Shown here piece by piece: positions 8,033-48,537 of a stretch of 53,455 bases of DNA. A model generated the notes under the pieces. The model was not told the origin of the DNA, made no database searches, and saw only the letters and a list, made by a program, of their open reading frames with translations. This DNA comes from an archaeon (GTDB lineage Archaea > Nanobdellota > Nanobdellia > Pacearchaeales > GW2011-AR1). The stretch lies in the NCBI GenBank assembly GCA_030679115.1, contig JAUXTS010000009.1:1-53455 (forward strand), read 5' to 3'. Both the position numbers and the translations under genes were made by a program. How positions within the stretch are numbered: position 1 is the first letter of the stretch; each line of letters opens with the position of its first letter.

Positions 8033-8164
8033 ATGAAAAAATACCTGCTGTTGATAGAAGACGAGAAGCTTTGGGAGAAATTTAAGAATTCAATAGACAA
8101 CGATATAAATAGCGAAATTATTTCTTTGATAAAGAAAAAAACAGAAACGAGGGATAAAAAATGA
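8033..8164 (+). CDS. Small protein (43 aa), first gene of the surface-protein operon
   Basis: MKKYLLLIEDEKLWEKFKNSIDNDINSEIISLIKKKTETRDKK. AGAGAGGA lies upstream, and there is an ATGA overlap with the 8161 gene. It replaces the antisense track ORF 7969-8178. Confidence 0.5.
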   Translation: MKKYLLLIEDEKLWEKFKNSIDNDINSEIISLIKKKTETRDKK

Positions 8165-9993
8165 ATAAACGAGGGCAATTGACAATGATTATCATAGTCG
8201 CTTTAGTAATCGTGGCAATGATTGCAACATATTTCTTGGTAAGAGGAGCTATATTTCAAGGAGGAATTTCAAGCGAATTCCAGCCAATATATGATTCTTA
8301 TAGTTCCTGTATAGAAGACAAGGCAAAAACTGCTCTTCAAATTGCAGGAACGCAAGGAGGCTATGTCTATTCACAGCCTTTCCTTCCGGGAAGTGAATAT
8401 GCTCCTTCCTCATCGCAATTGAACTTCTTGGGATTTGGAGTGCCTTATTGGTTTTATATTACTGGAAATGGATTAATAAAAGAACAAATGCCTTCTCAAA
8501 TTCAAATAGAACAAGAAATAGCAAGATATGTTGAAGAAAATATAAGAGATTGCAATAACTTTGAACAATTTTATGCTCGAGGCTATATGATAGAATTTGC
8601 AGAACCTGAAGTTATAGTATCAATTAAAGAAACACAAGTAGACATAAATGTTAATGCCCGAGTTTCTGCATCATTGGGAGAATCTTCTGCAACGAAAAGC
8701 AATCATGATGTTGCGATAACAAGTAAATTCGGCAAATTCTATAATTTGGCAAAGCAGATTTATAATAAAGAAAAATCAGAGGCTTTCCTTGAAAAATATG
8801 CCGTAGATGTTCTTAACTTATATGCTCCTGTAGATGGAGTAGATATAAGCTGTGCTCCAAAAATCTGGCAGACAAGAGAAGTTGCAGATACAATAAAAGA
8901 TGGATTAGTGGCAAATATAGGGACAATAAAATTAGATGGAGATTATTATTCTCTGGCAAATAAAAAACAGGAATATTTTGTAGTGAATCAAAAAGTTGAT
9001 GAATCAATAAATATGATTTATTCAAAAGATTGGCCTACTAAAATTGAAATTGCGGGAGATAATGGAGATTTGATGATAGCCGAGCCCGTAGGAAACAGCG
9101 AAGGTTTGGGAATAATGGGATTCTGTTATTCTCCATATCATTTTGTCTACGATGTTACTTTCCCTGTAATGATTCAAATATACAATAGTGAAGAAATATT
9201 CCAATTCCCAGTAATTGCGATAGTGGATAAGAATCTGCCTCGGGAAGGAATGGCTGTAAAAGCAGAAATTGAAGAAACAACTGATATCTGCCAATTTAAT
9301 ACTCAAGATATTAATGTGAAAGTTTATGATAGCACACTTAACCCTCTAAATGCTAACTTAAGTTATATCTGCTTTACTCAAGAATGTTCAATTGGACAAA
9401 CAAAGAATGGTGAACTTCGCGAAAAAGTCCCATCCTGTCTTAATGGCTATATTTTAGCAAGAGCAAACGGATTTACAGAGAAAAAACAATTATTTTCAAG
9501 CAATTCGGAAACACTTGCTGAAATATTTTTAGATAGGGAATATGAAGTTGAATTAGCGCTTAGCGTTGGAGGAAAATTCTTGAAAGATAATGCAGTAATA
9601 ACGTTTGAAGGAGCAAAATCCACAAGTGCCGTGCTTCCAGGTTCTTCAAAAGTAAAATTATCTGAAGGACTCTATAATATCACCGTCTATGTTTATGGAA
9701 ATTCAAGTATAACTATTCCTGCAACAACAAAAAGACAATGTGTATCTGTAGCTAAAGGCGGACTCGCAGGATTATTCGGCGGAACAGAAGAAAAATGCTT
9801 TGATATAAGTGTTCCTTCCACAAAGATAGAATATGCCCTGCTTGGCGGAGGAGCCAGTGAAGTATATCTTCTGCCTGAAGATTTAGAAAAAGGAAGATTA
9901 GAATTAAGCGTTGATTCGCTCCCAGTTCCAAAAACACTTGAAGAACTCGCAAACAATTATGAACTATTCAGCATGAAAGGAGTAACTATATGA
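8161..9993 (+). CDS. Large protein with archaeal type IV pilin-like (class III) signal peptide
   Basis: N-terminus MNKRG|QLTMIIIVALVIVAMIATYFLV (basic residues, Gly, hydrophobic helix). 610 aa, Cys-containing extracellular part. ATGA overlap with the next gene. Confidence 0.75.
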   Translation: MNKRGQLTMIIIVALVIVAMIATYFLVRGAIFQGGISSEFQPIYDSYSSCIEDKAKTALQIAGTQGGYVYSQPFLPGSEYAPSSSQLNFLGFGVPYWFYITGNGLIKEQMPSQIQIEQEIARYVEENIRDCNNFEQFYARGYMIEFAEPEVIVSIKETQVDINVNARVSASLGESSATKSNHDVAITSKFGKFYNLAKQIYNKEKSEAFLEKYAVDVLNLYAPVDGVDISCAPKIWQTREVADTIKDGLVANIGTIKLDGDYYSLANKKQEYFVVNQKVDESINMIYSKDWPTKIEIAGDNGDLMIAEPVGNSEGLGIMGFCYSPYHFVYDVTFPVMIQIYNSEEIFQFPVIAIVDKNLPREGMAVKAEIEETTDICQFNTQDINVKVYDSTLNPLNANLSYICFTQECSIGQTKNGELREKVPSCLNGYILARANGFTEKKQLFSSNSETLAEIFLDREYEVELALSVGGKFLKDNAVITFEGAKSTSAVLPGSSKVKLSEGLYNITVYVYGNSSITIPATTKRQCVSVAKGGLAGLFGGTEEKCFDISVPSTKIEYALLGGGASEVYLLPEDLEKGRLELSVDSLPVPKTLEELANNYELFSMKGVTI

Positions 9994-12900
9994 AAAAAAG
10001 TTTAATTTTCTTATTTGTATTTGTTTTCCTATTATCTTATGCAGCAGCTGCAACATTTACTCCTGCTCAAAGCACAAGTTTTGTAAATTATCAGAAAATG
10101 TCAAGTCTTGGATATTATGCTCCGGAAGGGAGATTATCAACATATTGGCCTCAAATGGATGAAGCAAATAAAGAAAGCTGCACTTCAAGACAGGATATTT
10201 TATTGCAGATAGCTCCAGGAGGATGTCAGCCGGCTGTTGTAAGAAGTGATTTGCTTGCCGAGCAAAATGTTCCGGTTTTCTGCCAAGTTATGGCTCTGCA
10301 GATTAATCCTTTGATAAATGTTCAAGAGATAAGCAATATAAGATTCACCGGAAACTATCCTAAAGAAATAGCTGGAACAGGATTCCATCCAGCAAAAGCT
10401 GCACTAAGAACAAATGATATTCTTCTCGGAAGCCCACTGACTAATAATATAGGTTATGTTGTAGTAATATTAAAGAAAAATGAAAAAGAAAGTTCCCTTC
10501 CTGATTTTGTAAATGTCACTCTCAGCGCACAAATAAGCTATGATGCAAAAAATGCATTTGGAATTGGAAGAAGTGATTTCATTCTTGAGCCAATGACTGA
10601 TGAACAATGGAATAAAGAAAAAGCAAAGCAATCGTTCTGGGGAGGAGCTTATTCAATACGAGCCGAAAGTGTAGAAAAAGATTATGCTGTTGTTTCAGTT
10701 TATTATCAAGACAGAAAAATATCAACTCAAAAAATAAAGAGAGGAGAAACTTCAAGTGATTTATATCTCCCAGGAATGTATTGCAGAGCCGCTCTGCAAT
10801 TGCAATTTGTAGATACAACTGTTGCACAAACACGGGCTAAATTAGAAATAAGAAGCGGAGACGGAACAGACACAGTAGATGTTTATTCAGGAAGCACATT
10901 CCTAAACGATAATTGCAGAGTAGAAAGTATAATTGCTTCTGCTGATGGTTCAACTGGAAATGTAACACTGAGATGCTCCCGAACAGGATTAAGTTCTGAA
11001 AGATTTACTCTATCCTTAAAGTCGGCAACTACTGGATTAATCACAGATAAAAATTTCGGAACTGATTTGGATATAAAGTTTAATGAAACAATAGAATCCT
11101 ATGAAAAAGTTATAGATTATCCGCAGGAAAGAGAAAACGATGCGAAGGAACTTCCAAGATATGGAGAAACTGCACTATCTGAAGCAATTGATTTCGCAAG
11201 AAGTTATGGAAAAACTTCAACCGAATCAAGATTAATAAAAAAATTCATGGAAACTTATCCAGATTCCCAACTAATAAATTCCAAAGGGTATCAAGCCAGA
11301 CTGGACGAAATTGGAAAAACAGACGATTCAAATGCAGTTTACAGCATTGAGATAAGCAACTCTTTCAAATCTATAAGACTTGCTGGGTTTGTTCAGCCTA
11401 AAGAACAGCCTGCAGCTTATCTATCAATTGATTCACAAATAGAAAAACTTGTTATTGGAACTAAAAAAACATTCTTTATAAAAGATAGTGCTGGAAGAGA
11501 TATTGAAAAATATATTATAATAAAAACTCTTGATACAAATAAAGTTGTTCTTGATACAAACTGTGAAGAAGCAGGAACTCTTTTTGGAGTTGAGCTTCTT
11601 CTTGACAACCCTGAAAGAGTATCCAAAACTCTTTGCGGACACGTTATTGGAATAAATAGAATAGAGACAACAGAATCTGCAAAAATAAGAGTTATTCCTT
11701 CATTCAAGGATACACGAACTGAAACTAATCTCACAGTCGCAATAGGAATTGAAAAAAGAGCCATTCAATTATCTCCTGTAAAAACACAGGAAAAAATCAC
11801 TGAACTGAATAAAACAATAATTAAATGGGAAGGTATATCTAACAATCTCGCAAAAGTTGTTACTGGAATGAAAGGGGCCTGCTTTGCTACAGCTGCAACT
11901 CTTACTTTCAAGAATTTCTTAGTTGGATTAAGTGGTGAAGCTCTTGCAAGACAAAAAGTTATGAATGGAGAAAGCGGTTGGAAAGAATTCTGTAAAAACG
12001 AACTTGCAAAAGAATCAAGCAAATATTCAAGCCTTGATGACTGCTTTAGTTCAAATTCAGATAAAATTGATAACGATGTTTCTCTTATGAGCACCCAGAT
12101 AAATAAATTAAACAATGATGTAAAAAGCATAGATTCCAGTTCAGTAGAAAAGGGCTCATTGGGAGAGAACAATGTAGATAGTGCTAAAGCCAGACAAGGT
12201 TATGTAGATTCAATCAAAAAAGAATTTCCAGATAATCCTATTGCACAAAAAGTAAATACTGGCATGACAACTGATGAATTGAGAAATACTTGGCTTCATC
12301 TAAGATTAAATAAAAACCAAGCCAGTTTAAGTGAAGAAGGAAAAACAAGAGTTAATAATGAACTTGGCAAAATCAACAAGCAGATTGAAGAAGAAATAGC
12401 TTTCCAGAAAAAATACACTTCCGCACAGCAACTTACCGGAAAAGGATATGCTACTCCTTTCTATGGAGCCGAATTTGCAAAGAGTGTAAGTTATGCAGAT
12501 GTCCGTCCTCTAACTGGAATCTCTTCTAGTGATGCTATATCAACTCAACTAAAAACCAATTCTGATATTACAGCAACTTCAACTATAATGACTGCTAACG
12601 GAGCTTATATTCTTGGATTGCAAGATGCACAAGGAACAGGAAATTATATTCCAAAAATGGCTATAAATGCCGACACAAATAAAGTCGTAACAGGAACAGA
12701 ACTTTCTCAGTTAATGTCACTCAATGGCATCGGAGCAATAAAAAAAGCAGATTCATCAACATATAACAATCCTATGAGAACTGCCGAAGTTAAATATTAT
12801 GAAACCGAGCCTTACAAAGGAATGCCTGCAATAGTTCCATTTGATACGCAAAGAGGCTGGTATGCTGCAACTAAACAAACTATTCCGGCTTTAGGAGGAA

Positions 12901-15431
12901 TAGGTGCATTTGATGCTTCAGGAAGAGTTGCAAGTTTCTGGTTATGCAACGCGGGAGAGGGAGGAGTAATAGAATTTGAGCAATCTGGATTTGGAAATGA
13001 TGTATGCGAACAAATTAATCTTCAAACTGGACAATCCTATGATATGTTCCCAGGATTATCCCCGACCGAAACAAAGAGTCTTGTAAATAAAGCAATTAAT
13101 TCACTTACCGAAGCATCAAGACAATATAAGGGCGGAGTCTCTTCAATTTCAATCCAAGGCACGCAGATTAAAGTTGGAAAGCCCGCTATAAATATTGCAG
13201 AAACAACTTGTTCAGATTTCATGAGTCCGAAAGAATGTTTGTTAATGTTCAATCTCTGCGACCCAGTAATTTGTCCTACAAGTAGATGTGACCTTGGCGG
13301 AAAATATCCTGTATCTGATGTAGTCCAAACAGGAATAGTTGGAAGCGTATTCTTATGTCTTCCAAATATAAGAGAAGGAATAGCCATGCCTGTCTGTCTT
13401 ACTGGAATTCAAGCAGGAATAGATTCTTATCTTTCTGTGATGAAATCCTACAGAAATTGTCTGCAGGAAAATCTAAACACGGGGCAGATGATTGGAGTAT
13501 GCGACCAGGTTTATTCAGTCTATCAATGTGAATTCTTCTGGAGACAGGTTGCCCCAGTTGCAAATGTCATCCTTCCAAAATTAGCCGAGCTTGCTTACGG
13601 ACAAGGAACACGAGGCGGAGGAGAATATCTTACCGTAAAATCCTCTTGGGATAACATGCAAAACTCAATAAATTATTTCAAAGAGAGCTATGCAGTAAAT
13701 TCTCTAAAGGCATTCCAAGCACGTTCAGTTGAAGAAGCAGGAGGAGAATTCTGCAAAGGATTTATCTCGCTTAAGAGCCCTAAGAAAATACAGAGTTTGC
13801 TCGAACCTGAAAGTCCTCCTCAATTTTATGCATCATTTAGTTCAACCACATTCACAACAGCCACAGTCCCAGCAACTGCCCAGTATAAAGTATTTTATCA
13901 TATATTCGCAGGAAAAGATGCTGGAACATATTACACAGTTTATCTAAAAAGTGGAACAGGCACATCATTTTATTATCTTCCTGCTACTGTACAAGTTACA
14001 TCTGGATTCATAACAAAAGGGGAATTCAAATCTGAAACAAAAGACTTCACTGCCCCAGATGGATACAAAGAACTTTGTGTAAGAATAAATGAAGAAGAAA
14101 AATGTGGATTCAAGCAGGTTTCAACCGATTTCGCAGTTAATTATCTTAAAGATTCTTATGTTCAAAGCGAAATTGAAAAGGGAGAAATAACAACTGAAAA
14201 AGAATGTGTTAGCGGAAGTCCAAGCGTCGGTTCATTAATTGCAAATACAAATCCTCAATCTGCTTTAGAAGAAACCGCAACTCCTGAAATTTACAATAGG
14301 GGAATAGTCCGAGTCTGTGCAACATCTAACCCTGGAAGTTCAGTAGATGCCACAAGATTTGTAGCTAAAGGATATTGTGGAGATAAAAAAATAATATGCT
14401 GGCTGGATACAAGAAGTGTAGGTAACGCTATAACTGATGCAAATAAAGGATTGCAAAAAGAAACTCTTCAAAATCTCCAACAGACAACCGAGCAAAACCT
14501 CGTTGCAAGCGGAGAATTTGATACTGAAAGCGCATCAACAAAAAACATCGCAGATTTGAGAGTATCAGCCAAAGAGGTAAGCAAAGTCAAAGGAAAAACC
14601 TCTATTGAAAAAGCAACAAACGTATTAATAAAAGCAAACGAAGTTTTGAGAACAGCCGAGACTATATTTTCCAAACTTTATCTTAATAATCAGAAAGCTG
14701 AAGTTCTTTTGATTGAAGCACAAGTAAAGAGAATTATTGCTGATGCCACTAGTCCCGCAGTTGCACCTACACCCGAAGTAGTTCCTAATGCTCCTGCTAC
14801 GACGCCTCCTGCAACTCCTGCAACATGTGGTAATAATAAAATAGACGAAAATGAGCAATGTGATTATACTGCTAATCCTGAATTTAAAATAGGTATGTCA
14901 ACATGCAATGAAATTTATGGAGCAGATTATAGCGGAACGCTCATATGTGATAACGATTGCAAAATTGATTTTGGAGATTGCGTCAATGCGGAAGGAACTC
15001 CTTCAGATTCAACATCAATACTTGGTTTCCAGATAACTCCTAATAAACTTTGGGCTGATTTAACAGATGAAGAGCTAAAAAAAGTTATTGCCGATAAATG
15101 GAGCGAAGAAAGCTGGGATAATACCTATTTAGCTAGTGCAGAATCCAAAGTGCCCTCTTCAACAATTCAATTCACCCTAAAAGAAGATAGCTACGTCTTT
15201 GGATTTGGAAATATACAAAGAATATTCCAAAGTAATGAAGATACTCATCTTTATATTAGAAATGAATTTATTTATGCAGATATTTCTGGAACAGACCAAC
15301 CAGTTGGAGTTACTCCTTCAGGTACTCGCATAGTTCTTGATAAAACAAAATATAGTTTATATGATATTTTAAATCAAAATAATTTTGATTTAATTAATGG
15401 TAAAAAAATAGAAGGAACTCAATTAGTCTAG
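9990..15431 (+). CDS. Giant secreted/surface protein (1813 aa)
   Basis: Sec-type signal MKKSLIFLFVFVFLLSYAAAATF. Many Cys residues. Pro/Thr/Ala linker TSPAVAPTPEVVPNAPATTPPATPA followed by CGNNKIDENEQCDY...C...C...C (Cys-rich repeat of the CG-x-G-x-id-x-gE-x-CD type). No C-terminal TM segment. Confidence 0.85.
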   Translation: MKKSLIFLFVFVFLLSYAAAATFTPAQSTSFVNYQKMSSLGYYAPEGRLSTYWPQMDEANKESCTSRQDILLQIAPGGCQPAVVRSDLLAEQNVPVFCQVMALQINPLINVQEISNIRFTGNYPKEIAGTGFHPAKAALRTNDILLGSPLTNNIGYVVVILKKNEKESSLPDFVNVTLSAQISYDAKNAFGIGRSDFILEPMTDEQWNKEKAKQSFWGGAYSIRAESVEKDYAVVSVYYQDRKISTQKIKRGETSSDLYLPGMYCRAALQLQFVDTTVAQTRAKLEIRSGDGTDTVDVYSGSTFLNDNCRVESIIASADGSTGNVTLRCSRTGLSSERFTLSLKSATTGLITDKNFGTDLDIKFNETIESYEKVIDYPQERENDAKELPRYGETALSEAIDFARSYGKTSTESRLIKKFMETYPDSQLINSKGYQARLDEIGKTDDSNAVYSIEISNSFKSIRLAGFVQPKEQPAAYLSIDSQIEKLVIGTKKTFFIKDSAGRDIEKYIIIKTLDTNKVVLDTNCEEAGTLFGVELLLDNPERVSKTLCGHVIGINRIETTESAKIRVIPSFKDTRTETNLTVAIGIEKRAIQLSPVKTQEKITELNKTIIKWEGISNNLAKVVTGMKGACFATAATLTFKNFLVGLSGEALARQKVMNGESGWKEFCKNELAKESSKYSSLDDCFSSNSDKIDNDVSLMSTQINKLNNDVKSIDSSSVEKGSLGENNVDSAKARQGYVDSIKKEFPDNPIAQKVNTGMTTDELRNTWLHLRLNKNQASLSEEGKTRVNNELGKINKQIEEEIAFQKKYTSAQQLTGKGYATPFYGAEFAKSVSYADVRPLTGISSSDAISTQLKTNSDITATSTIMTANGAYILGLQDAQGTGNYIPKMAINADTNKVVTGTELSQLMSLNGIGAIKKADSSTYNNPMRTAEVKYYETEPYKGMPAIVPFDTQRGWYAATKQTIPALGGIGAFDASGRVASFWLCNAGEGGVIEFEQSGFGNDVCEQINLQTGQSYDMFPGLSPTETKSLVNKAINSLTEASRQYKGGVSSISIQGTQIKVGKPAINIAETTCSDFMSPKECLLMFNLCDPVICPTSRCDLGGKYPVSDVVQTGIVGSVFLCLPNIREGIAMPVCLTGIQAGIDSYLSVMKSYRNCLQENLNTGQMIGVCDQVYSVYQCEFFWRQVAPVANVILPKLAELAYGQGTRGGGEYLTVKSSWDNMQNSINYFKESYAVNSLKAFQARSVEEAGGEFCKGFISLKSPKKIQSLLEPESPPQFYASFSSTTFTTATVPATAQYKVFYHIFAGKDAGTYYTVYLKSGTGTSFYYLPATVQVTSGFITKGEFKSETKDFTAPDGYKELCVRINEEEKCGFKQVSTDFAVNYLKDSYVQSEIEKGEITTEKECVSGSPSVGSLIANTNPQSALEETATPEIYNRGIVRVCATSNPGSSVDATRFVAKGYCGDKKIICWLDTRSVGNAITDANKGLQKETLQNLQQTTEQNLVASGEFDTESASTKNIADLRVSAKEVSKVKGKTSIEKATNVLIKANEVLRTAETIFSKLYLNNQKAEVLLIEAQVKRIIADATSPAVAPTPEVVPNAPATTPPATPATCGNNKIDENEQCDYTANPEFKIGMSTCNEIYGADYSGTLICDNDCKIDFGDCVNAEGTPSDSTSILGFQITPNKLWADLTDEELKKVIADKWSEESWDNTYLASAESKVPSSTIQFTLKEDSYVFGFGNIQRIFQSNEDTHLYIRNEFIYADISGTDQPVGVTPSGTRIVLDKTKYSLYDILNQNNFDLINGKKIEGTQLV

Positions 15432-15470: not shown

Positions 15471-15556
15471 TATGCGGAGAACAGGTACTAGCAGAACTTC
15501 GTTCCGCGGTAACTCCAACATTTACATGTTGAAGTATTCGAAATTCGAATCCTTTA
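15471..15556 (-). repeat. tRNA-Leu trailer element: inverted T-arm copy, T-loop copy, hairpins H1 and H2, repeat of the tRNA 3' end
   Basis: In tRNA sense: TAAAGGATTCGAA-TTTCGAAT-ACTTCAACATGTAAATGTTGGAGT-TACCGCGGAACGAAGTTCTGCTAGTA-CCTGTTCTCCGCATA. The last 15 nt match the tRNA end CCTGTTCCCCGCATA with one mismatch. Confidence 0.8.
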
Positions 15557-15640
15557 TGCGGGGAACAGGATTCGAACCTGTGTAAGCACTAAGCTACTTG
15601 GTCCTAAGCCAAGCCCATTTGACCACTCTGGCATCCCCGC
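15557..15640 (-). tRNA. tRNA-Leu (anticodon TAG), class II with long variable arm
   Basis: GCGGGGATGCCAGAGTGGTCAAATGGGCTTGGCTTAGGACCAAGTAGCTTAGTGCTTACACAGGTTCGAATCCTGTTCCCCGCA. It has a CTTGG/CCAAG anticodon stem, loop CT-TAG-GA, and T arm ACAGG-TTCGAAT-CCTGT. Confidence 0.9.
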
Positions 15641-15729
15641 AAATCTGAGATTTGTGGGCATTGGGATGAAATCCCTCAGCCCGCATAAATTAAAGTAATA
15701 AAAGAGTGTTTTAAATTTAACTAATAGAA

Positions 15730-16053
15730 TCAAGCTACAATCAAATCTTCTCTCAAGGCAGTTCTCTTAGCAAGAATCCAATCAAGTTTTATCAAATTGC
15801 TCACAAAAGAATGAGTTACATTCAATTTATAATAATCTGACTTTCCAATTCTCCTGGTTTTAACAACCATTCCGGAAATTATGAAGTGAGGAAAAAAAGT
15901 TTTTAGAGAGTTATAGCTGACATTTGCTCCTCTTGCAATTTCAGTCACAGGAAAATCAAAAAACTGATTATCTATCAAAAAATCAATTACTCGTAGTTGT
16001 GGAGTATCTCCGAACTGCATCAAAAACAGCGATTTATTTTCTTTAGTTTTCAT
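15730..16053 (-). CDS. Winged-helix DNA-binding protein (putative transcription regulator)
   Basis: 107 aa. LRVIDFLIDNQFFDFPVTEIARGANVSYNSLKTFFPHFIISGMVVKTRRIGKSDYYKLN looks like a wHTH fold. Confidence 0.55.
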   Translation of the reverse strand: MKTKENKSLFLMQFGDTPQLRVIDFLIDNQFFDFPVTEIARGANVSYNSLKTFFPHFIISGMVVKTRRIGKSDYYKLNVTHSFVSNLIKLDWILAKRTALREDLIVA

Positions 16054-16154
16054 GATTATTATTCTTATTATTCTTATTATTTAAATCTTTCTATTACTGA
16101 TACCATTATTTCATTAATGGAAACATTTATAATTAAGCTTTTTCAAATATATTC

Positions 16155-16415
16155 ATGTCTTTTGATTTGGAAAAAGCACAGGGGATGTTCAAATTAACCA
16201 GAAAAAATAATTGGAATGCCTGCTATGACAGATTAGAGCATTTCAAAAGATTTGAAAATCTAAAATCCATAATAAAAGAACTTTCTAATATCAACTGGAT
16301 AATAATTCACAAAAAGCCAAATTTTATAGGAATATCTCTAAATACCAAATTCAAAAAAGAGGTAGTAGAATTTATAGAAAAACATATGCCTCATCTTAAG
16401 GGAGTAATACAATAA
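16155..16415 (+). CDS. Hypothetical protein
   Basis: 86-aa ORF with an ATG start. No family recognised. Confidence 0.45.
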   Translation: MSFDLEKAQGMFKLTRKNNWNACYDRLEHFKRFENLKSIIKELSNINWIIIHKKPNFIGISLNTKFKKEVVEFIEKHMPHLKGVIQ

Positions 16416-22497: not shown

Positions 22498-22626
22498 TTT
22501 AAAGGGATTTCATTCTTCAATCCCTTATTTCTCGATTTGAACTGCGAAGCACGTTCAAATACTTCAACATGTTAATGTTGAAGTCACCGCAGAGCTTTGC
22601 TCTGCAAGTGCTGTCGGGAGCGTTTA
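22498..22626 (+). repeat. tRNA-Arg trailer element: hairpin, inverted T-arm copy, direct T-arm copy, H1, H2, 15-nt repeat of the tRNA 3' end
   Basis: AAGGGATT...AATCCCTT (22502-22526). CGATTTGAACTGC (22533-22545) is an inverted copy of the T arm. GCACGTTCAAAT (22549-22560) is a direct copy. H1 is ACTTCAACATGTTAATGTTGAAGT (22561-22584). H2 is CACCGCAGAGCTTTGCTCTGCAAGTG (22585-22610). TGTCGGGAGCGTTTA (22612-22626) is identical to 22487-22501. Confidence 0.85.
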
Positions 22627-22744: not shown

Positions 22745-22923
22745 TATTATAGTTTTGAAAGCCAGCGGAAAACTTTTTCTAAAAGTTTTTGCTGTTCGAA
22801 TCACTTCAATCTCTTTAGAGTTGAAGCTTCAAGATTCTATGAATCTTGACAGTGCTCAAGAATCAAAACTCAGGATTCTTGACATCACCGCGGAGCTTGC
22901 TCTGCGAGTGCTGGCCTGCGCTT
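22745..22923 (+). repeat. tRNA-Cys trailer element (expanded version with extra nested hairpins)
   Basis: AAAACTTTT-TCT-AAAAGTTTT (22769-22789). T-loop copy TTCGAAT (22795-22801). H1 variant ACTTCAATCTCTTTAGAGTTGAAG (22803-22826). TCAAGATTCTATGAATCTTGA (22829-22849). TCAAGAATC...GATTCTTGA (22856-22882). H2 is CACCGCGGAGCTTGCTCTGCGAGTG (22886-22910). CTGGCCTGCGCTT (22911-22923) is identical to 22733-22745. Confidence 0.85.
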
Positions 22924-24885: not shown

Positions 24886-24969
24886 TCGAACGAGGAGAGT
24901 TCGATTCACTTCAACATGTGAGTGTTGAAGTTGTCCACGGAACTTGTTCTGTGGCATCGGCGGGTCCAT
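24886..24969 (+). repeat. tRNA-Ala trailer element (minimal version)
   Basis: ATCGAAC (24885-24891) is an inverted copy of the T-loop. GAGTTCGATT (24897-24906) is a direct copy. H1 is CACTTCAACATGTGAGTGTTGAAGT (24907-24931). H2 is TGTCCACGGAACTTGTTCTGTGGCA (24932-24956). TCGGCGGGTCCAT (24957-24969) is identical to 24874-24886. Confidence 0.85.
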
Positions 24970-26071: not shown

Positions 26072-26189
26072 TGGCTCGGGGGAGGATTGAACTCCCGGCC
26101 TCGGCCTGTCTCAAATCTGCGATTTGCGAGCAAATCCCAGTAACCTGTGATTTCATGAGAGCCGCGTTCTACCACTGAACTACCGAGCC
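26072..26189 (-). tRNA. tRNA-Met (anticodon CAT; elongator Met or Ile2-type) with 46-nt intron (about 26108-26153)
   Basis: In tRNA sense: GGCTCGG-TA-GTTC-AGTGGTA-GAAC-G-CGGCT-CTCATG[intron]A-GGCCG-AGGCC-GGGAG-TTCAATC-CTCCC-CCGAGCC-A. It is not initiator-like, because there is no A1:U72 pair and no GGG/CCC in the anticodon stem. Confidence 0.85.
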
Positions 26190-27924: not shown

Positions 27925-28437
27925 TTATGGCCTTGTCCAAGAAACTTCATAATAACTTACATCTCCCTCTTCATCAACAATTCCCAAAAGAAGATTTTTC
28001 TTGGTTGAATGAGCAATTCTATTTTTTGCAGAAAAATCATGCCAGCTTAATTGCTCGTTCTCTTTTGCCGTATAAAGAATCCAATGTGCATGCTCTTCTC
28101 CCGGCTTAACTCCTTTATCATAAACCCTGAATTCCGCCCCATATTTAAGCGCAGTTTTTACAATATATCCTTTTTTCCTTAAATCTGAAAAAACTATGCA
28201 CTTCGTCTCTATCTTTTTATCACCCCTTCTTGCTTTTCTCATTAAATCTTCAAAAGAAACTACCTTCTTACCAGATTTCAAAATCATTCTTTTTTCTGCA
28301 ATTAAAAATAATGCTTCAGCAGAGGAATATTCTATATGGCTTTCTTTTTTCTCTCCAAATTTAGATTTCTCATACCATGAAAATGCATCTGAAGAAGAAG
28401 ATATTATTCTGTCCCCTGTAAGATTTGCGTCTATCAT
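27925..28437 (-). CDS. endA: tRNA-splicing endonuclease EndA
   Basis: 170 aa. FSDLRKKGYIVKTALKYGAEFRVYDKGVKPGEEHAHWILY...STKKNLLLGIV carries the catalytic Tyr/His/Lys pattern. The size fits a homotetramer-type subunit. Confidence 0.88.
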   Translation of the reverse strand: MIDANLTGDRIISSSSDAFSWYEKSKFGEKKESHIEYSSAEALFLIAEKRMILKSGKKVVSFEDLMRKARRGDKKIETKCIVFSDLRKKGYIVKTALKYGAEFRVYDKGVKPGEEHAHWILYTAKENEQLSWHDFSAKNRIAHSTKKNLLLGIVDEEGDVSYYEVSWTRP

Positions 28438-39426: not shown

Positions 39427-41925
39427 CTACTCCTCCTCATCCTTGACGCCCTTAGTCGTAACATAAAATTGGCATTCATTGTCTGGAAGGTTTGGAGAGT
39501 CAATCAGCTTTGCAACTCTTGAGCCCTGTTTTCCTCTCCTAAAATACATACGGTAAGTAGAATTATGAACAATGAACCCATTTGCTATATAATTTTCTTT
39601 ACTTGGAACAGAAAAATCATACAATATCTTCCCATCGTTCTTTTCAATTTTTATTTCTCTTATCTTCTCAAATCTAATATTTCCATTCAGTAACTTAAAA
39701 ATAAAATCAATCTTCTGCTTTATCTGCCTGTCACTAATAGAACAACCCATTAGTCCTAAAAATGCCTGCTCAAGCTCTTTTCTGCTAACCCATAAATAAC
39801 TTTCAGCTCTCGGTTTAATAAATTTAGAATAATTTAACCCGCAGCTTTCTAAAAGTAATCTTAATTCCTCTCTTTTAACAGGCATCATTTCATAAGAATA
39901 TGTTTTCTTGCATTTTTTTATACATTCCAATAATCTTACCTGCTTATCTTCTGCAGTAAATCCAATCTGCAAATATCCAATAACATCTCTATCCGCAATT
40001 CTTAATATATTTATTTTCTTTCTCCCGATTCCAAACTTAATTGTCGACCTTATCCCGCTCCTCAATAAAAACATCTGAATATATTTTAAAATTCGGGCAT
40101 CTTTTTGTGAAACAGTTATATGTGCCCTCTTCTTATTAATATGTCCCTCGGCGTCTACAAATCCCCTAATAAAAGCATCGACAACATTTTTCTTAGACTT
40201 TCCAATCTCACTAAAAATATCCTGCTTCATAAATCTAAACAAATCAGCTATTTCCCTAGAATTAATATAGAGAGTGTAACAATTTTTATCTTTCATCTTA
40301 GTTATTTTACCATTTATATTAAAAACTCCTTTAAACAAAGAGTTATAATTCTCTAAAACACCTACCCTGGCGTCCCTAAATCTTAATCCTCCAGTTTCAA
40401 AATTTCCATCACCCATAAAATACCCAAATACTTGCGCCAGCTGAGGATTCAAAACTTCAGGAATCATCAAATCTCTATGCTTGCAGCTAAAAACAGACTC
40501 CAACTGCAAAACCAACTCGCTTCCAAAATGCGCCTGCAAATTATCTAAAACTTCAAAAGATGTTGGATATTCCTGATTCAAAACTCTTCTAAATTGTCTA
40601 GGAGTTATTCCAATATTTCCACATATTTCTTTTCTACTAACTTCTTCCCCCTTCAATTTATTGCATATAACCTTTCCGCTTTCTTTAGAAATTTTCCCTA
40701 TCTTCTTTACCTTAAATCTCGGAATTGGCATTTCTTCACCCACAACCTCAATCTTAGAAGGCTGCGCAACAAAATCTCCTCCCTTTAAATCTTTAGCTTC
40801 TTTTTCAATAACTTCAAACTTATCAATTGTAAAAAATCTATGAAGTCCAGAACAACTAATCTGATTATTTGTCTTTATATTATAAATCTCATTTACATCA
40901 GGATTAACAAAAACCTGCTCGCTCTTGCTCCCCTCAATTCCTAAAGAAGAAAAATTACCTGAAAGAACGTTATCCTTTTTCATATCTTTAATTTCAACAA
41001 TCCTCCCGTCCGCAAGCTGTATTAAAGAATCACCAGTCAAGCAAGCGTGTCCGACAATATTCCCCCCAACGGCAGTTGTAGGATCTCCAAACATCATTGC
41101 AGGATTTGCCATTACCTGATTTGTAACATAAACCGCAAGATTATGCTGTTCAGACATTCTTATCAAATTATGTAAATATCTATTCAACTTCTGTTGCCTA
41201 TCAGCCAACTGCCCTCTTCCAGCGTACTCTGCTCTGAAATGTGCAGTCAAAGAATCTATAATTACAAGTCTTATCGGCTCTCCCTCTTTTATCATCTCGG
41301 CAATTCTATCCATTAAAAGAATCTGATGGTCAGAATTAAACGCTCTTGCAACTAAAACATTTTTCAAAACCTTGTTTGCATCAGCCCCCATTCCTTCTGC
41401 TATCTGTCTAATTCTCTCAGGCCTAAAAGTTCCTTCAGTGTCTATATACACTGCCTTGCCTCCTGCTCCTCCCTGCTCTTTAGGCAGCTGCACAGTTACC
41501 GCAAGCGATAAAGCTAATTGAGTTTTTCCACTGCCATAAGCCCCATAAGCTTCCGTAAGCGCCCCAGTCTCAACACCTTTTCCTCCCAGAAGATTATTCA
41601 GATTAGAACTTCCAGTTGTGATATAAAATATGTTCTCCCTTTTCTTTGCAAATTCGGAAGCATCCATAAAACCAAGATTAAGCATTCCTCTTGCTGCTTG
41701 TATTGCCTTTCTCGCAACTGCCTCCCCAACACCTGCCATTTCAGAAAGCGCCGAAGGCGACATTACAGCCAACCCCATTAAATCATAAACGCCTGCTGCC
41801 TCAAGTTTTGCCGCAATTCCCGGTCCAATCCCAGGAATATCTGTAAGTTTGGGTGCGCTTTCCTTAATCTCAATCACCTCTTCAACCTCTTTTTCCACAA
41901 CTTCCTCTTCTTCCATAAGCCCCAC
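39427..41925 (-). CDS. radA: DNA repair and recombination protein RadA, interrupted by an intein
   Basis: HhH N-domain (LTDIPGIGPGIAAKLEAAGV), Walker A GAYGSGKTQ, Walker B LVIIDS, and extein junction VGGNIVGHA|C...HN|STYRMYFRRGKQGSRVAKLIDSPNLP. The start is GTG at 41925 or ATG at 41916. Confidence 0.95.
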   Translation of the reverse strand: MGLMEEEEVVEKEVEEVIEIKESAPKLTDIPGIGPGIAAKLEAAGVYDLMGLAVMSPSALSEMAGVGEAVARKAIQAARGMLNLGFMDASEFAKKRENIFYITTGSSNLNNLLGGKGVETGALTEAYGAYGSGKTQLALSLAVTVQLPKEQGGAGGKAVYIDTEGTFRPERIRQIAEGMGADANKVLKNVLVARAFNSDHQILLMDRIAEMIKEGEPIRLVIIDSLTAHFRAEYAGRGQLADRQQKLNRYLHNLIRMSEQHNLAVYVTNQVMANPAMMFGDPTTAVGGNIVGHACLTGDSLIQLADGRIVEIKDMKKDNVLSGNFSSLGIEGSKSEQVFVNPDVNEIYNIKTNNQISCSGLHRFFTIDKFEVIEKEAKDLKGGDFVAQPSKIEVVGEEMPIPRFKVKKIGKISKESGKVICNKLKGEEVSRKEICGNIGITPRQFRRVLNQEYPTSFEVLDNLQAHFGSELVLQLESVFSCKHRDLMIPEVLNPQLAQVFGYFMGDGNFETGGLRFRDARVGVLENYNSLFKGVFNINGKITKMKDKNCYTLYINSREIADLFRFMKQDIFSEIGKSKKNVVDAFIRGFVDAEGHINKKRAHITVSQKDARILKYIQMFLLRSGIRSTIKFGIGRKKINILRIADRDVIGYLQIGFTAEDKQVRLLECIKKCKKTYSYEMMPVKREELRLLLESCGLNYSKFIKPRAESYLWVSRKELEQAFLGLMGCSISDRQIKQKIDFIFKLLNGNIRFEKIREIKIEKNDGKILYDFSVPSKENYIANGFIVHNSTYRMYFRRGKQGSRVAKLIDSPNLPDNECQFYVTTKGVKDEEE
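39562..41043 (-). mobile_element. Intein (494 aa) with LAGLIDADG homing-endonuclease domain in RadA
   Basis: Starts CLTGDSLIQLADG (Cys codon at 41041-41043) and ends GFIVHN with Ser at +1. The two LAGLIDADG blocks are FGYFMGDGNF and IRGFVDAEGHI. Confidence 0.9.
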
Positions 41926-44231: not shown

Positions 44232-44630
44232 TTAATTGGGTTCAACCCTCTTCACCGCAGAAACTTTGTCAAAATGCCTATCAAAACTCATAATTTCTTT
44301 GCTTTTTGTAGATAAAGCAGATTGCAAAACAATTGCATCCTCATAATCTAAATTATACTTGCCCATTACATTCAATGCCTCTAACCTATCTCTCATACTT
44401 ACAGAATAAATTCTAATTCCTTTAGAATTTATTATCTTATTGATAAACTCTCTTATCTTTTTATTATCTCCCCCGTGATTACTCATAACCAAAATAACAG
44501 AATCAATCGTAAAATCTGAAACTACCGCGCTTACTTCCCCATTGGCAGTTTTATTCAAAAAAGTTCTGCACCTGTCGGAATTCTTCTGTTCAAGCAAAAG
44601 CTCCAAAAAAATATTAGCGTCTATTAGCAT
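44232..44630 (-). CDS. vapC: PIN-domain ribonuclease toxin (VapC-like)
   Basis: MLIDANIFLELLL..., DFTIDSV, YEDAIVLQSAL, SFDRHF. Start trimmed to the ATG at 44630. Confidence 0.75.
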   Translation of the reverse strand: MLIDANIFLELLLEQKNSDRCRTFLNKTANGEVSAVVSDFTIDSVILVMSNHGGDNKKIREFINKIINSKGIRIYSVSMRDRLEALNVMGKYNLDYEDAIVLQSALSTKSKEIMSFDRHFDKVSAVKRVEPN

Positions 44631-44892
44631 TTTTTCTCTTTGTATATTTATTAGCAACGGATTTCCAAGCTTCATGCTGTAAATCTACAGAATCTTTCTT
44701 AACGTGTTTCATACACCCTTCTAAAGAACCCCAATCTTCTGTTTGAACATCTCTGCCGACATTACTCCATTCACTTATAGCTTCTTTAGCCGCCTCGCTC
44801 ATTGAACCTTTCTTAAACCCGAATCTAATCATAGCTATCTTTCTAAATGCCCTTTCAATTTCATCAGGTAAAACTATTTTTAATTCGCCCAT
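44614..44892 (-). CDS. vapB: Antitoxin-like protein (VapB/RHH-like)
   Basis: MGELKIVLPDEIERAFRKIAMIRFGFKKGSMSEAAKEAISEW. Lies directly upstream of, and overlaps, the PIN gene. Confidence 0.6.
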   Translation of the reverse strand: MGELKIVLPDEIERAFRKIAMIRFGFKKGSMSEAAKEAISEWSNVGRDVQTEDWGSLEGCMKHVKKDSVDLQHEAWKSVANKYTKRKNANRR

Positions 44893-48177: not shown

Positions 48178-48537
48178 TTATTTTATATATTCGACATTAT
48201 CTATTTCTGCAAACTCCTTATCTCCTGTCAAAAATTTGAGTTTATTTTTTATTGCAACAACATAACCAATACAATCTACTGTAGATAATTTTTTATCTTT
48301 ATTTGCAAACTTAAAATCAGAAGCATTTATGGCATCTTCTTTTGTTATCTCGATTAAATTATAATTAAATCTCTTAATCCAATAATCAGCAGTTTGTTTA
48401 TTAAATTCTCTAACTAATGCCTGATGTAATTCAAAAAGATTTAATATTGTGCAAGTTGGAACTTCAACTTTATATTTTTCATAAGAAAAATTCCCGCGGA
48501 TTATCTCTATTAAAGCATAACTATCAAAAAAATACAT
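48178..48537 (-). CDS. vapC: PIN-domain toxin (VapC-like)
   Basis: MYFFDSYALIEIIRGN..., TVDCIGYVVA, FLTGDKEF. Confidence 0.75.
   Translation of the reverse strand: MYFFDSYALIEIIRGNFSYEKYKVEVPTCTILNLFELHQALVREFNKQTADYWIKRFNYNLIEITKEDAINASDFKFANKDKKLSTVDCIGYVVAIKNKLKFLTGDKEFAEIDNVEYIK

Follow-up and report, generated by a model that had tools for sequence, protein, structure and literature searches.

The tRNA-Leu(UAG) gene of a 53,455-nucleotide archaeal contig (JAUXTS010000009.1, assembly GCA_030679115.1; the whole stretch is referred to here as the window) raises the question of how 44 additional base pairs came to lie between its promoter and its first base, and what becomes of them in the transcript. 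The window is from a groundwater metagenome, has a G+C content of 32%, and encodes a TFB protein whose close homologues are labelled Candidatus Pacearchaeota or Nanoarchaeota. Eight tRNA genes are present, three of them with canonical introns of ~46 nt. The explanation that we consider best, and hold with about even confidence, is that the extra sequence is an insertion-derived, conserved and structured 5' leader on a gene of the leaderless type, within a wider traffic of hairpin cassettes at tRNA gene ends. An initial annotation of the sequence had linked this leader to an intron and a trailer of other tRNAs, and the sequence strings it quoted were all located where it placed them.

The insertion upstream of tRNA-Leu(UAG)

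The insertion totals 44 bp, comprising a 39-nt cassette and a second GCGGG, and lies between the promoter and the tRNA-Leu(UAG) gene. The same insert was identified at one related locus, L042 (GCA_964357205.1). The parts of the locus in the window are the following.

15557 to 15640, minus strand: tRNA-Leu(UAG) gene, intron-less (ARAGORN and Rfam)
15641 to 15679, minus strand: 39-nt leader cassette with two hairpins (from the fold; 39/39 positions identical in L042)
15680 to 15684, minus strand: upstream GCGGG, a copy of the first five tRNA bases and the left direct repeat of the insertion (conserved in L042)
15708 to 15715, minus strand: TATA-like octamer TTTAAAAC, promoter of the tRNA-Leu transcript, ending 23 nt before the upstream GCGGG

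Read in tRNA sense from 15679 to 15641, the leader is CTGAGGGATTTCATCCCAATGCCCACAAATCTCAGATTT. Its 5' hairpin (GGGAU-UUC-AUCCC) is nested in a GGGC/GCCC pairing that draws on the upstream repeat, and its 3' hairpin (CAAAUC-UCA-GAUUUG) abuts G1 of the tRNA. The leader fold has an energy of -17.4 kcal/mol (z = -1.9). When the whole precursor was folded together with the trailer, the minimum-energy structure took the upstream GCGGG as the acceptor strand; competition between the two GCGGG copies is therefore real, and may be prevented by the leader's own predicted fold. The removal of any 44-nt frame between the two copies restores the same 84-nt tRNA with a complete cloverleaf, a trivial consequence of the direct repeat.

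The acceptor 5' end had been described as duplicated, which was found to be correct: GCGGG occurs twice, and the upstream copy starts 23 nt after the TATA octamer. The 10-bp inverted repeat reported around leader and tRNA was likewise exact in the window (TTTATGCGGG, 15689 to 15680 in tRNA sense, against CCCGCATAAA). The extended alternative acceptor helix proposed from it did not hold up. The repeat consists of GCGGG/CCCGC with an A/U-rich extension that is imperfect in L042 (TTTAAGCGGG against CCCGCATGAA), and the 5' bases beyond GCGGG are not fully conserved between the two loci. A derivation of the leader and upstream repeat from an inverted tRNA-Leu 3' half (T-arm, acceptor strand and trailer) was also rejected, as only the 10-bp repeat aligned and the match did not reach into the T-arm.

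No Rfam family matched the leader, even at permissive thresholds, and only the tRNA reached the gathering score. No second full copy of the leader was found in 340 kb, which contained only partial relatives, in the tRNA-Met intron and the tRNA-Arg trailer. In the RNA runs, only 7% of the words of the locus were present, corresponding to tRNA bodies from other organisms. The contigs of the source run showed the tRNA-Leu locus in no other form.

Promoter placement

A promoter survey covered 46 tRNA genes, namely all eight of the window and those of 14 related Pacearchaeota loci (L006-L051). The distance from the end of the TATA-like octamer to tRNA position 1 was 22-23 nt in 30 of the 41 matched tRNAs, and an octamer lay 20-25 nt ahead of position 1 in 37 of the 41 (46 examined). 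At tRNA-Leu(UAG) in the window, the 23-nt spacing runs to the upstream GCGGG and not to the real G1 (15640), and the same is true of L042. The gene therefore looks like one of the leaderless type with 44 bp inserted in its first five bases. A 21-nt promoter block, TTTAAAACACTCTTTTATTAC, is identical between the window and L042. No TATA-like box was present inside the leader; a candidate internal promoter, TTTCATCC, has the right spacing to G1 but agrees with only four of the eight TATA consensus positions and was discounted.

About one tRNA in ten breaks the spacing rule (L019 Ala-CGC, L044 Leu, L050 Leu and L050 Tyr). The L019 Ala-CGC gene is located 61 nt behind Ala-GGC, without a correctly spaced promoter. 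Since such tRNAs exist, a 5'-processing activity must be present in the lineage. In Nanoarchaeum equitans, a strict promoter spacing gives leaderless tRNAs and RNase P is absent (PMC10100707). The survey suggests that many members of this part of DPANN may transcribe leaderless tRNAs, as is so far known from that organism; the disposal of 44 extra bases would then become a pointed question.

Presence and conservation of the insert in related genomes

The tRNA-Leu(UAG) gene lies downstream of the TFB gene in nine loci. The insert is present in two of these, the window and L042, and absent from the other seven (L041, L019, L044, L048, L049, L050 and L051). Five of the seven (L041, L019, L048, L049 and L051) have the TATA box 21-23 nt before G1, while L044 and L050 show other upstream arrangements. 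A direct repeat of GCGGG flanking the insert, together with empty sites in relatives, is the arrangement of a target-site duplication. The flanks of the empty sites could not be aligned, so the exact pre-insertion sequence is one that we infer.

The nucleotide identity between the window and L042 is 84.8% for TFB and 73.5% for S8e. In contrast to these genes, GCGGG and the leader are identical at 44/44 positions; five of the 10 nt directly before GCGGG differ, and the DNA upstream of the TATA box and downstream of the tRNA units is unalignable. The tRNA-Leu itself differs at 2/84 positions, which form a compensatory change of pair 12:23 from A-U to G-C. The tRNA gene has therefore been functional since the insert was acquired. 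Judged by these comparisons, purifying selection acts on the leader as tightly as on the tRNA itself.

Only the two leader-bearing genomes have a block of two open reading frames (ORFs) in the interval from TFB to tRNA-Leu (window 15730-16415, L042 2547-3232). One ORF encodes a winged-helix-like protein of 107 aa without a Pfam match, and the other, on the opposite strand, a protein of 86 aa. The block is missing from L041 and L019. L042 also has an NAD kinase gene in this interval.

Such conservation might point to a functional RNA element, that is, a protein-binding or regulatory 5' domain or a released small RNA that is kept for its function and not simply tolerated. The identity of all 44 positions, loops and linkers included, between lineages 15-26% diverged in neighbouring genes would favour this, as would the compact fold, the conserved promoter block and the winged-helix-like ORF directly upstream in both genomes. 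Set against these, the leader matches no Rfam family, the fold z-score is only -1.9, and the two lineages that carry it offer no variation in which to read covariation. We regard a functional RNA as unlikely.

Similarity to the tRNA-Met intron and the tRNA-Arg trailer

Two further features of the window are needed here.

26108 to 26153, minus strand: canonical 46-nt intron of tRNA-Met(CAU), whose hairpin CTGGGATTTGCTCGCAAATCGCAGATTTG is the leader-related block
22503 to 22539, plus strand: tRNA-Arg(UCU) trailer segment aligning with almost the whole leader (score 27.5, p = 6e-4)

A strict bulge-helix-bulge (BHB) can be drawn by hand for the tRNA-Met intron (CUCA/UGAG, with bulges UG|A and AC|A). 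The tRNA-Arg segment is part of a 3' cassette unit, described below, where it separates the end of the tRNA from the inverted T-loop copy.

The initial annotation had based the relationship on short shared blocks. The 15-mers at 15640-15654 and 26112-26126 do match at 14 of 15 positions, and AGGGATTTCAT is exact at 22503-22513 in the tRNA-Arg trailer. AAATCCC follows both 15-mers as claimed, but at different distances (14 and 5 nt), which implies a 9-nt indel. None of the blocks exceeds chance expectation when considered alone: the expected number of matches per window is 0.41 for the 15-mer pattern and 2.5 for the 11-mer AGGGATTTCAT with at most one mismatch, and the BLAST E value of the shared blocks is ~2.7. 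An exact 15-mer of the tRNA-Met intron also occurs inside a protein-coding ORF of 1813 aa (14547-14561), and matches of such length therefore arise by chance in A/T-rich sequence.

A collinear local alignment of the leader with the tRNA-Met intron reached a score of 28 (p = 2e-4, 5000 dinucleotide shuffles). It reads GGGATT...TGC(C/T)C(A/G)CAAATC(T/G)CAGATTT, and the similarity is partial, with 17/20 and 6/6 matches separated by a 9-nt gap. The alignment with the tRNA-Arg trailer (score 27.5, p = 6e-4) spans 38 columns. When the leader was slid across both strands of the whole window, the tRNA-Met intron and the tRNA-Arg trailer were the top two non-self places, the next best scoring 24. Both matches are in tRNA sense and fall within non-coding DNA attached to tRNAs, a class that accounts for ~1% of the search space. 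The proposal of modules shared between leader, intron and trailer thus stands for the collinear blocks, and only the longer alignment counts in the case of AGGGATTTCAT. A relationship of the leader to both sequences is probable from these alignments, though not proven.

The tRNA-Met gene of L050 has an intron at the same place, with ~33/46 bases kept, including the central hairpin and the block shared with the leader, TGCTCACGAATCGCAGATTCG (genes at L050 2730-2847, plus strand, and window 26072-26189, minus strand). For an intron this degree of preservation is unusual, the TFB genes of the two lineages being only 77% identical at the nucleotide level. As the intron is conserved in L050 and the leader occurs in two of nine loci, the intron is old and the leader young. 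If the two are related, the direction would be from an intron-like sequence to the leader, and an intron-like sequence at a new place is a reasonable reading of the alignment. Descent of the leader from the canonical intron of the orthologous L019 tRNA-Leu was considered and rejected, since the alignment was not significant (p = 0.16).

Removal of the leader

The window encodes a tRNA splicing endonuclease.

27925 to 28437, minus strand: EndA, 170 aa, with N-terminal and catalytic domains (Pfam PF02778 and PF01974), an alpha-type subunit

An RNase Z-like metallo-beta-lactamase and LeuRS are also encoded. Removal of the leader by EndA had been raised as a possibility. Neither a strict nor a relaxed BHB was found in any of the six equivalent splice registers (0/1 to 5/6), which were enumerated by hand, and the minimum free energy folds of the leader and the precursor showed none. 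In register 5/6, which comes closest, the central helix (U.G, G-C, C-G and G.U) relies on a base 5' of the predicted start, the intron helix is shifted by 4 nt, and an outer helix is lacking. If transcription starts at the upstream G, the 5' exon would be at most 5 nt, and therefore too short for a 4-bp helix and bulge. Nothing in the predicted structure supports splicing of the leader.

The alternative that bears on these observations is an acceptor-stem intron, in which the upstream G...GCGGG (1-5 nt) would serve as 5' exon and EndA would splice out the 44 nt, with ligation of the exons by the RNA ligase RtcB and the leaderless logic of the lineage kept. The position of the upstream GCGGG is indeed exactly that of a canonical position 1, conservation of the leader is strong, and the block shared with tRNA-Met covers the 3' BHB strands (GAUU-UGAG-AC|A in Met, corresponding to GAUU-UGCG-GG|G in Leu). 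EndA is at hand, the lineage may depend little on RNase P, and alpha4-type EndAs of DPANN with an extra L3 loop have been linked to disrupted tRNA genes and may accept relaxed motifs (PMC5829648). We nevertheless consider this intron improbable, given that none of the six registers yields a helix-bulge-helix, that the best of them depends on two G.U pairs and the defects noted above, and that a 5' exon of at most 5 nt cannot supply four paired and two bulged bases. Our best guess is that the leader is removed as an ordinary 5' leader, most likely by RNase P. RNP subunits are reported in archaeal genomes generally (PMC6380272).

Cassettes behind tRNA genes

The association of small modules with duplicated tRNA termini, first noticed at tRNA-Leu, was borne out and proved far more general, extending to 3' ends and to relatives. 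Structured 3' units follow four of the eight tRNAs of the window (Leu, Arg-UCU, Cys and Ala), spanning 15471-15556 (minus strand), 22498-22626, 22745-22922 and 24886-24969 (all plus strand). Each unit begins with a few trailer bases, followed by the tRNA's own T-loop and the beginning of its T-stem 3' strand in inverted copy. In most units the T-loop is then repeated in direct orientation, forming a hairpin with the inverted copy, before a conserved segment of ~50 nt that we call cassette E. The unit closes with a repeat of the 3' strands of T-stem and acceptor and of the discriminator, plus 0-4 trailer bases; in the window this repeat covers the last 13-15 bases of the tRNA. A covariance model of cassette E (R1) was run on 215 kb of Pacearchaeota DNA, and its scores are included below.

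15536 to 15553, minus strand: tRNA-Leu trailer palindrome AGGATTCGAA, the inverted T-loop and T-stem 3' strand start, followed by T and the direct T-loop copy TTCGAAT
15486 to 15535, minus strand: cassette E of tRNA-Leu, hairpin 1 ACTTCAACATGTAAATGTTGGAGT with a GNRA-type loop (R1 72.9 bits)
15471 to 15485, minus strand: second tRNA-Leu 3' end CCTGTTCTCCGCATA, comprising T-stem and acceptor 3' strands, discriminator and 2 nt (14/15 bases)
22561 to 22626, plus strand: cassette E (22561-22610) and second tRNA-Arg 3' end (22611-22626) (R1 69.5 bits)
22803 to 22922, plus strand: long cassette E variant with two extra hairpins, and second tRNA-Cys 3' end (22910-22922)
24908 to 24969, plus strand: cassette E (24908-24956) and second tRNA-Ala 3' end (R1 51.5 bits)

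The tRNA-specific palindrome arrangement of the trailer is also present at the Arg and Ala genes and in L016, L019, L021 and L023. Hairpin 1 of cassette E (ACTTCAACATGTnAnTGTTGAAGT) is nearly invariant, with a GNRA-type loop in 9/10 copies. Hairpin 2 (GCGGAAC-GAA-GTTCTGC at tRNA-Leu) covaries: double changes were present in 8/10 pairs, 93% of cells were paired, and no shuffle reached the observed score. Folded as single strands, the 3' units give compact junctions of several hairpins (z from -2.0 to -6.4). No Rfam family matched cassette E or the 3' units, permissive thresholds included, and neither a strict nor a relaxed BHB was found around cassette E at position 60/61 of the partial tRNA copy.

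All 15 R1 matches of at least 30 bits, which occur at 12 tRNA genes, lie 20-170 nt downstream of a tRNA gene; the weaker independent matches occupy the same interval and none lies elsewhere in the 215 kb. Direct repeats of the tRNA 3' segment were identified at 12 tRNA genes, with lengths of 13-22 bp (mostly ~15, and 33 bp at L019). They start at or right after the T-loop and leave the tRNA gene intact. Among loci retrieved through TFB, regardless of any cassette, 8/31 tRNAs are followed by a repeat of their own 3' end. A scan of metagenome contigs with hairpin 1 returned 37 stretches, of which eight were genuine tRNA-linked cassettes and the others unrelated palindromes; the same architecture was seen behind tRNA-Met, Cys, Leu-UAA, Leu-UAG and Arg-CCU. 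The scan gave only two chance matches in genome contigs, both in bacteria, and none in viral contigs.

Occupancy and orientation vary between relatives. The tRNA-Cys site is empty in L019, holds a reversed E in L010 and a long forward E in the window. The tRNA-Leu site is empty in L041, occupied in forward orientation in the window and L019, and carries a different, reversed variant in L042. A simple flip of a shared E was rejected as the source of the difference between the window and L042, whose copies are different variants. Tandem arrays were present behind tRNA-Arg(UCU) in L044 (5835-6090, minus strand; three identical 87-nt units) and behind tRNA-Leu(UAG) in L042 (3497-3895, plus strand; one reversed E unit and two 131-nt units with another cassette), each unit ending with a copy of the tRNA 3' end. 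The trailers of two 'empty' tRNA-Leu sites contain a small palindrome or degenerate hairpin 1 (L041 4012-4040, AAGGAACCTACGGTTCC; L049 11926-11990, GTTCGAATCACTTCAATCACATTGATGTTGAAC; both plus strand), which by their sequence look like decayed cassette remnants.

The tRNA-Leu(UAA) of L021 (10680-10858, minus strand) has a 95-nt canonical intron that holds CCTTCAATCTTATGAAAGTTGAAGG, similar to a variant hairpin 1 of E, and cassette E also occurs in its trailer. With the tRNA-Arg trailer match lying inside a 3' unit, similar small hairpins are thus found as trailers, as introns and once as a leader. A duplicated tRNA end accompanies the hairpins in the trailer and leader cases.

In its own sense, E is always preceded by TTCRAAY, a heptamer that represents the T-loop or the near-palindromic complement of this loop. 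Irrespective of the orientation of E, the first repeat is always followed by the tRNA-specific inverted T-loop copy, and reversed units read as the segment from T-loop to 3' end, the inverted T-loop and E, repeated. Recombination of the tRNA with a small circle or a folded single strand carrying a copy of the tRNA end would give this layout. A simple target-site duplication was rejected for the 3' units, as the T-loop copy sits on the other side of E, and a casposon-like element with terminal inverted repeats was a poor fit as stated. The 3' cassettes show the bounding direct repeat and intact tRNA expected of an att-type element, without an integrase nearby. No description of such 3' cassette units was found in the literature searched, and hairpin-cassette traffic at the ends of Pacearchaeota tRNA genes is apparently undescribed.

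Explanations for the locus

The favoured explanation of an inserted 5' leader would run as follows. A 44-bp insertion (the 39-nt cassette and GCGGG) would have landed within positions 1-5 of a tRNA-Leu(UAG) gene that was presumably built, like nearly all tRNA genes of the lineage, for transcription from its first base. The promoter would still fire at the old start and yield a primary transcript of GCGGG, cassette and real tRNA. The cassette would fold on itself, the spare GCGGG pairing with an internal UGCCC, and would thereby not compete with the true acceptor strand, before being cut at G1. In origin the cassette would be kin of the older, conserved tRNA-Met intron hairpin and of the tRNA-Arg trailer hairpin. 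The wider process may be one in which hairpin-only cassettes settle at tRNA gene ends together with a terminal tRNA copy, so that the tRNA gene stays intact.

Several observations weigh against this explanation. The leader is the sole 5' case among the 46 tRNAs, and its kinship with the 3' cassettes is drawn from one alignment. The similarity is short, and mostly unrelated contigs totalling 340 kb gave chance scores of 26-30; it is thus the location and collinearity of the matches, and not the score alone, that lend support. RNase P RNA was not found in the window and 138 kb of related loci (~190 kb, a small part of any genome), and the strict promoter spacing resembles that of Nanoarchaeum equitans, which is without RNase P (PMC10100707). 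With the leader's 3' hairpin ending directly at G1, position -1 has no single-stranded nucleotide, which is not ideal for an RNase P substrate. The perfect conservation of all 39 bases exceeds what removal alone demands. Finally, no recombinase or transposase gene lies near any cassette in the window or the nine related loci; integrase, transposase and Cas1 domains were absent from the 59 scanned window ORFs of at least 100 aa and from the gene tables of those loci.

A broader account, which we put forward tentatively and hold to be less likely than not, is that a family of miniature non-coding hairpin cassettes integrates specifically at Pacearchaeota tRNA termini and also seeds introns and leaders. 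The tRNA-Leu leader would be an intermediate caught in the course of tRNA gene disruption, perhaps processed by something other than RNase P in a lineage whose tRNAs are otherwise leaderless. Each integration would duplicate the terminal tRNA segment, in a leader-plus-repeat layout similar to that of casposon or CRISPR integration, and arrays could grow in this way.

That the leader is an inert scar of a larger mobile element at the tRNA-Leu 5' end, with GCGGG as the remains of its attachment site, seems quite unlikely. The region between TFB and the tRNA does differ among relatives, the window and L042 share the upstream ORF block that L041 and L019 lack, both tRNA flanks are unalignable even between close relatives, and the tRNA-Thr model of Caldiarchaeum offers a precedent (PMC3293823). 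The GCGGG copies, however, flank 39 nt only and not the ORF block, no integrase is present, and a scar would not remain 44/44 identical beside diverging bases. An ordinary leader with a coincidental GCGGG and a chance likeness among A/T-rich hairpins, for which the chance-level single blocks and the comparable scores in unrelated contigs could be cited, is hardly probable when the top two matches are collinear, in sense and within the ~1% of tRNA-attached non-coding DNA, when the five-base match falls at the exact promoter-defined start (chance ~1e-3), and when seven orthologues have no leader of this kind.

How archaeal tRNA genes gain introns, splits and other disruptions is an open question in the field. 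Existing proposals invoke DNA-level 'intron transposition' or mobile-element integration, and the mechanism is known for neither. Here, one lineage offers an old canonical intron, a younger similar 5' insertion with target duplication, empty sites and 3' cassettes. With this combination, the question becomes open to testing, both by comparing Pacearchaeota genomes and by simple assays of processing in vitro.

Other genes in the window

A RadA/Rad51 recombinase gene (39427-41925, minus strand; 832 aa in total) is split by an intein with a LAGLIDADG homing-endonuclease domain. Two large ORFs of 610 and 1813 aa (8161-15431, plus strand), without a Pfam match, are located between tRNA-Val and tRNA-Leu, a position kept in L044, L048, L049, L050 and L051; the 1813-aa ORF has an N-terminal signal-like segment. 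Two PIN-domain proteins are encoded at 44232-44675 and 48178-48537 (both minus strand), and MazE/ParE-type pairs are present near the corresponding tRNA cluster in L049 and L051.

Comparison with known systems

The strict promoter-to-tRNA spacing and a start at position 1 resemble the situation in Nanoarchaeum equitans (PMC10100707). There the rule applies to every tRNA, whereas here about one in ten is an exception and one gene has a 44-nt 5' extension.

Intron transposition in Thermoproteales (Fujishima et al. 2010, as summarised in PMC4090602) likewise involves short similar sequences on different tRNAs and at different positions, and according to that summary the gain is thought to occur at the DNA level, by a mechanism that is not known. 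The copies it describes are near-identical and are all BHB-bounded, spliced introns (PMC4090602). In the present lineage, one 5' leader and one 3' trailer lack a BHB, the similarity is partial, and duplicates of tRNA ends flank the modules.

The tRNA-Thr locus of Caldiarchaeum subterraneum, where disruption by a mobile element has been proposed as a route to intron gain, shares with ours a population or lineage polymorphism at one tRNA locus and a partial tRNA copy beside the insert (PMC3293823). That insert measures 1.8 kb and encodes a recombinase (PMC3293823), in contrast to hairpin-only inserts of 39-130 nt with no recombinase nearby. Integrative viruses and plasmids of the SSV and pNOB8 types that use tRNA att sites also show a direct repeat of the tRNA 3' end, an intact tRNA and tandem insertions (PMC4090602, PMC3293823). 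The present units differ in that, at 70-130 bp, they are too small for coding, the same cassette occurs at at least eight tRNA species, and the inverted T-loop copy is always present.

Casposons integrate beside the TΨC-loop of a tRNA with a 15-bp target duplication (PMC5137440), and this likeness may serve as a lead, as may hairpin-dependent single-strand recombination. The features in common are a target from the TΨC-loop region, the duplication of ~15 bp (here 13-22 bp from the T-loop), a leader-plus-repeat layout and arrays. Here, however, no Cas1 or PolB gene and no casposon-type terminal inverted repeats are present, the duplication is of a segment within the tRNA and not mostly beyond it, and cassette E is conserved and not arbitrary.

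Bacterial REP/BIME elements and the palindrome elements derived from IS200/IS605 are also hairpin-only and non-coding, with a sequence-conserved hairpin beside a structure-conserved one. They insert directly 3' of a short motif on either strand; the motif for the cassettes described here would be TTCRAAY, in the T-loop. REP/BIME-type elements are dispersed in intergenic DNA and show no long target duplication, whereas cassette E was seen nowhere but downstream of tRNA genes, and a duplicated tRNA end accompanies it in every case.

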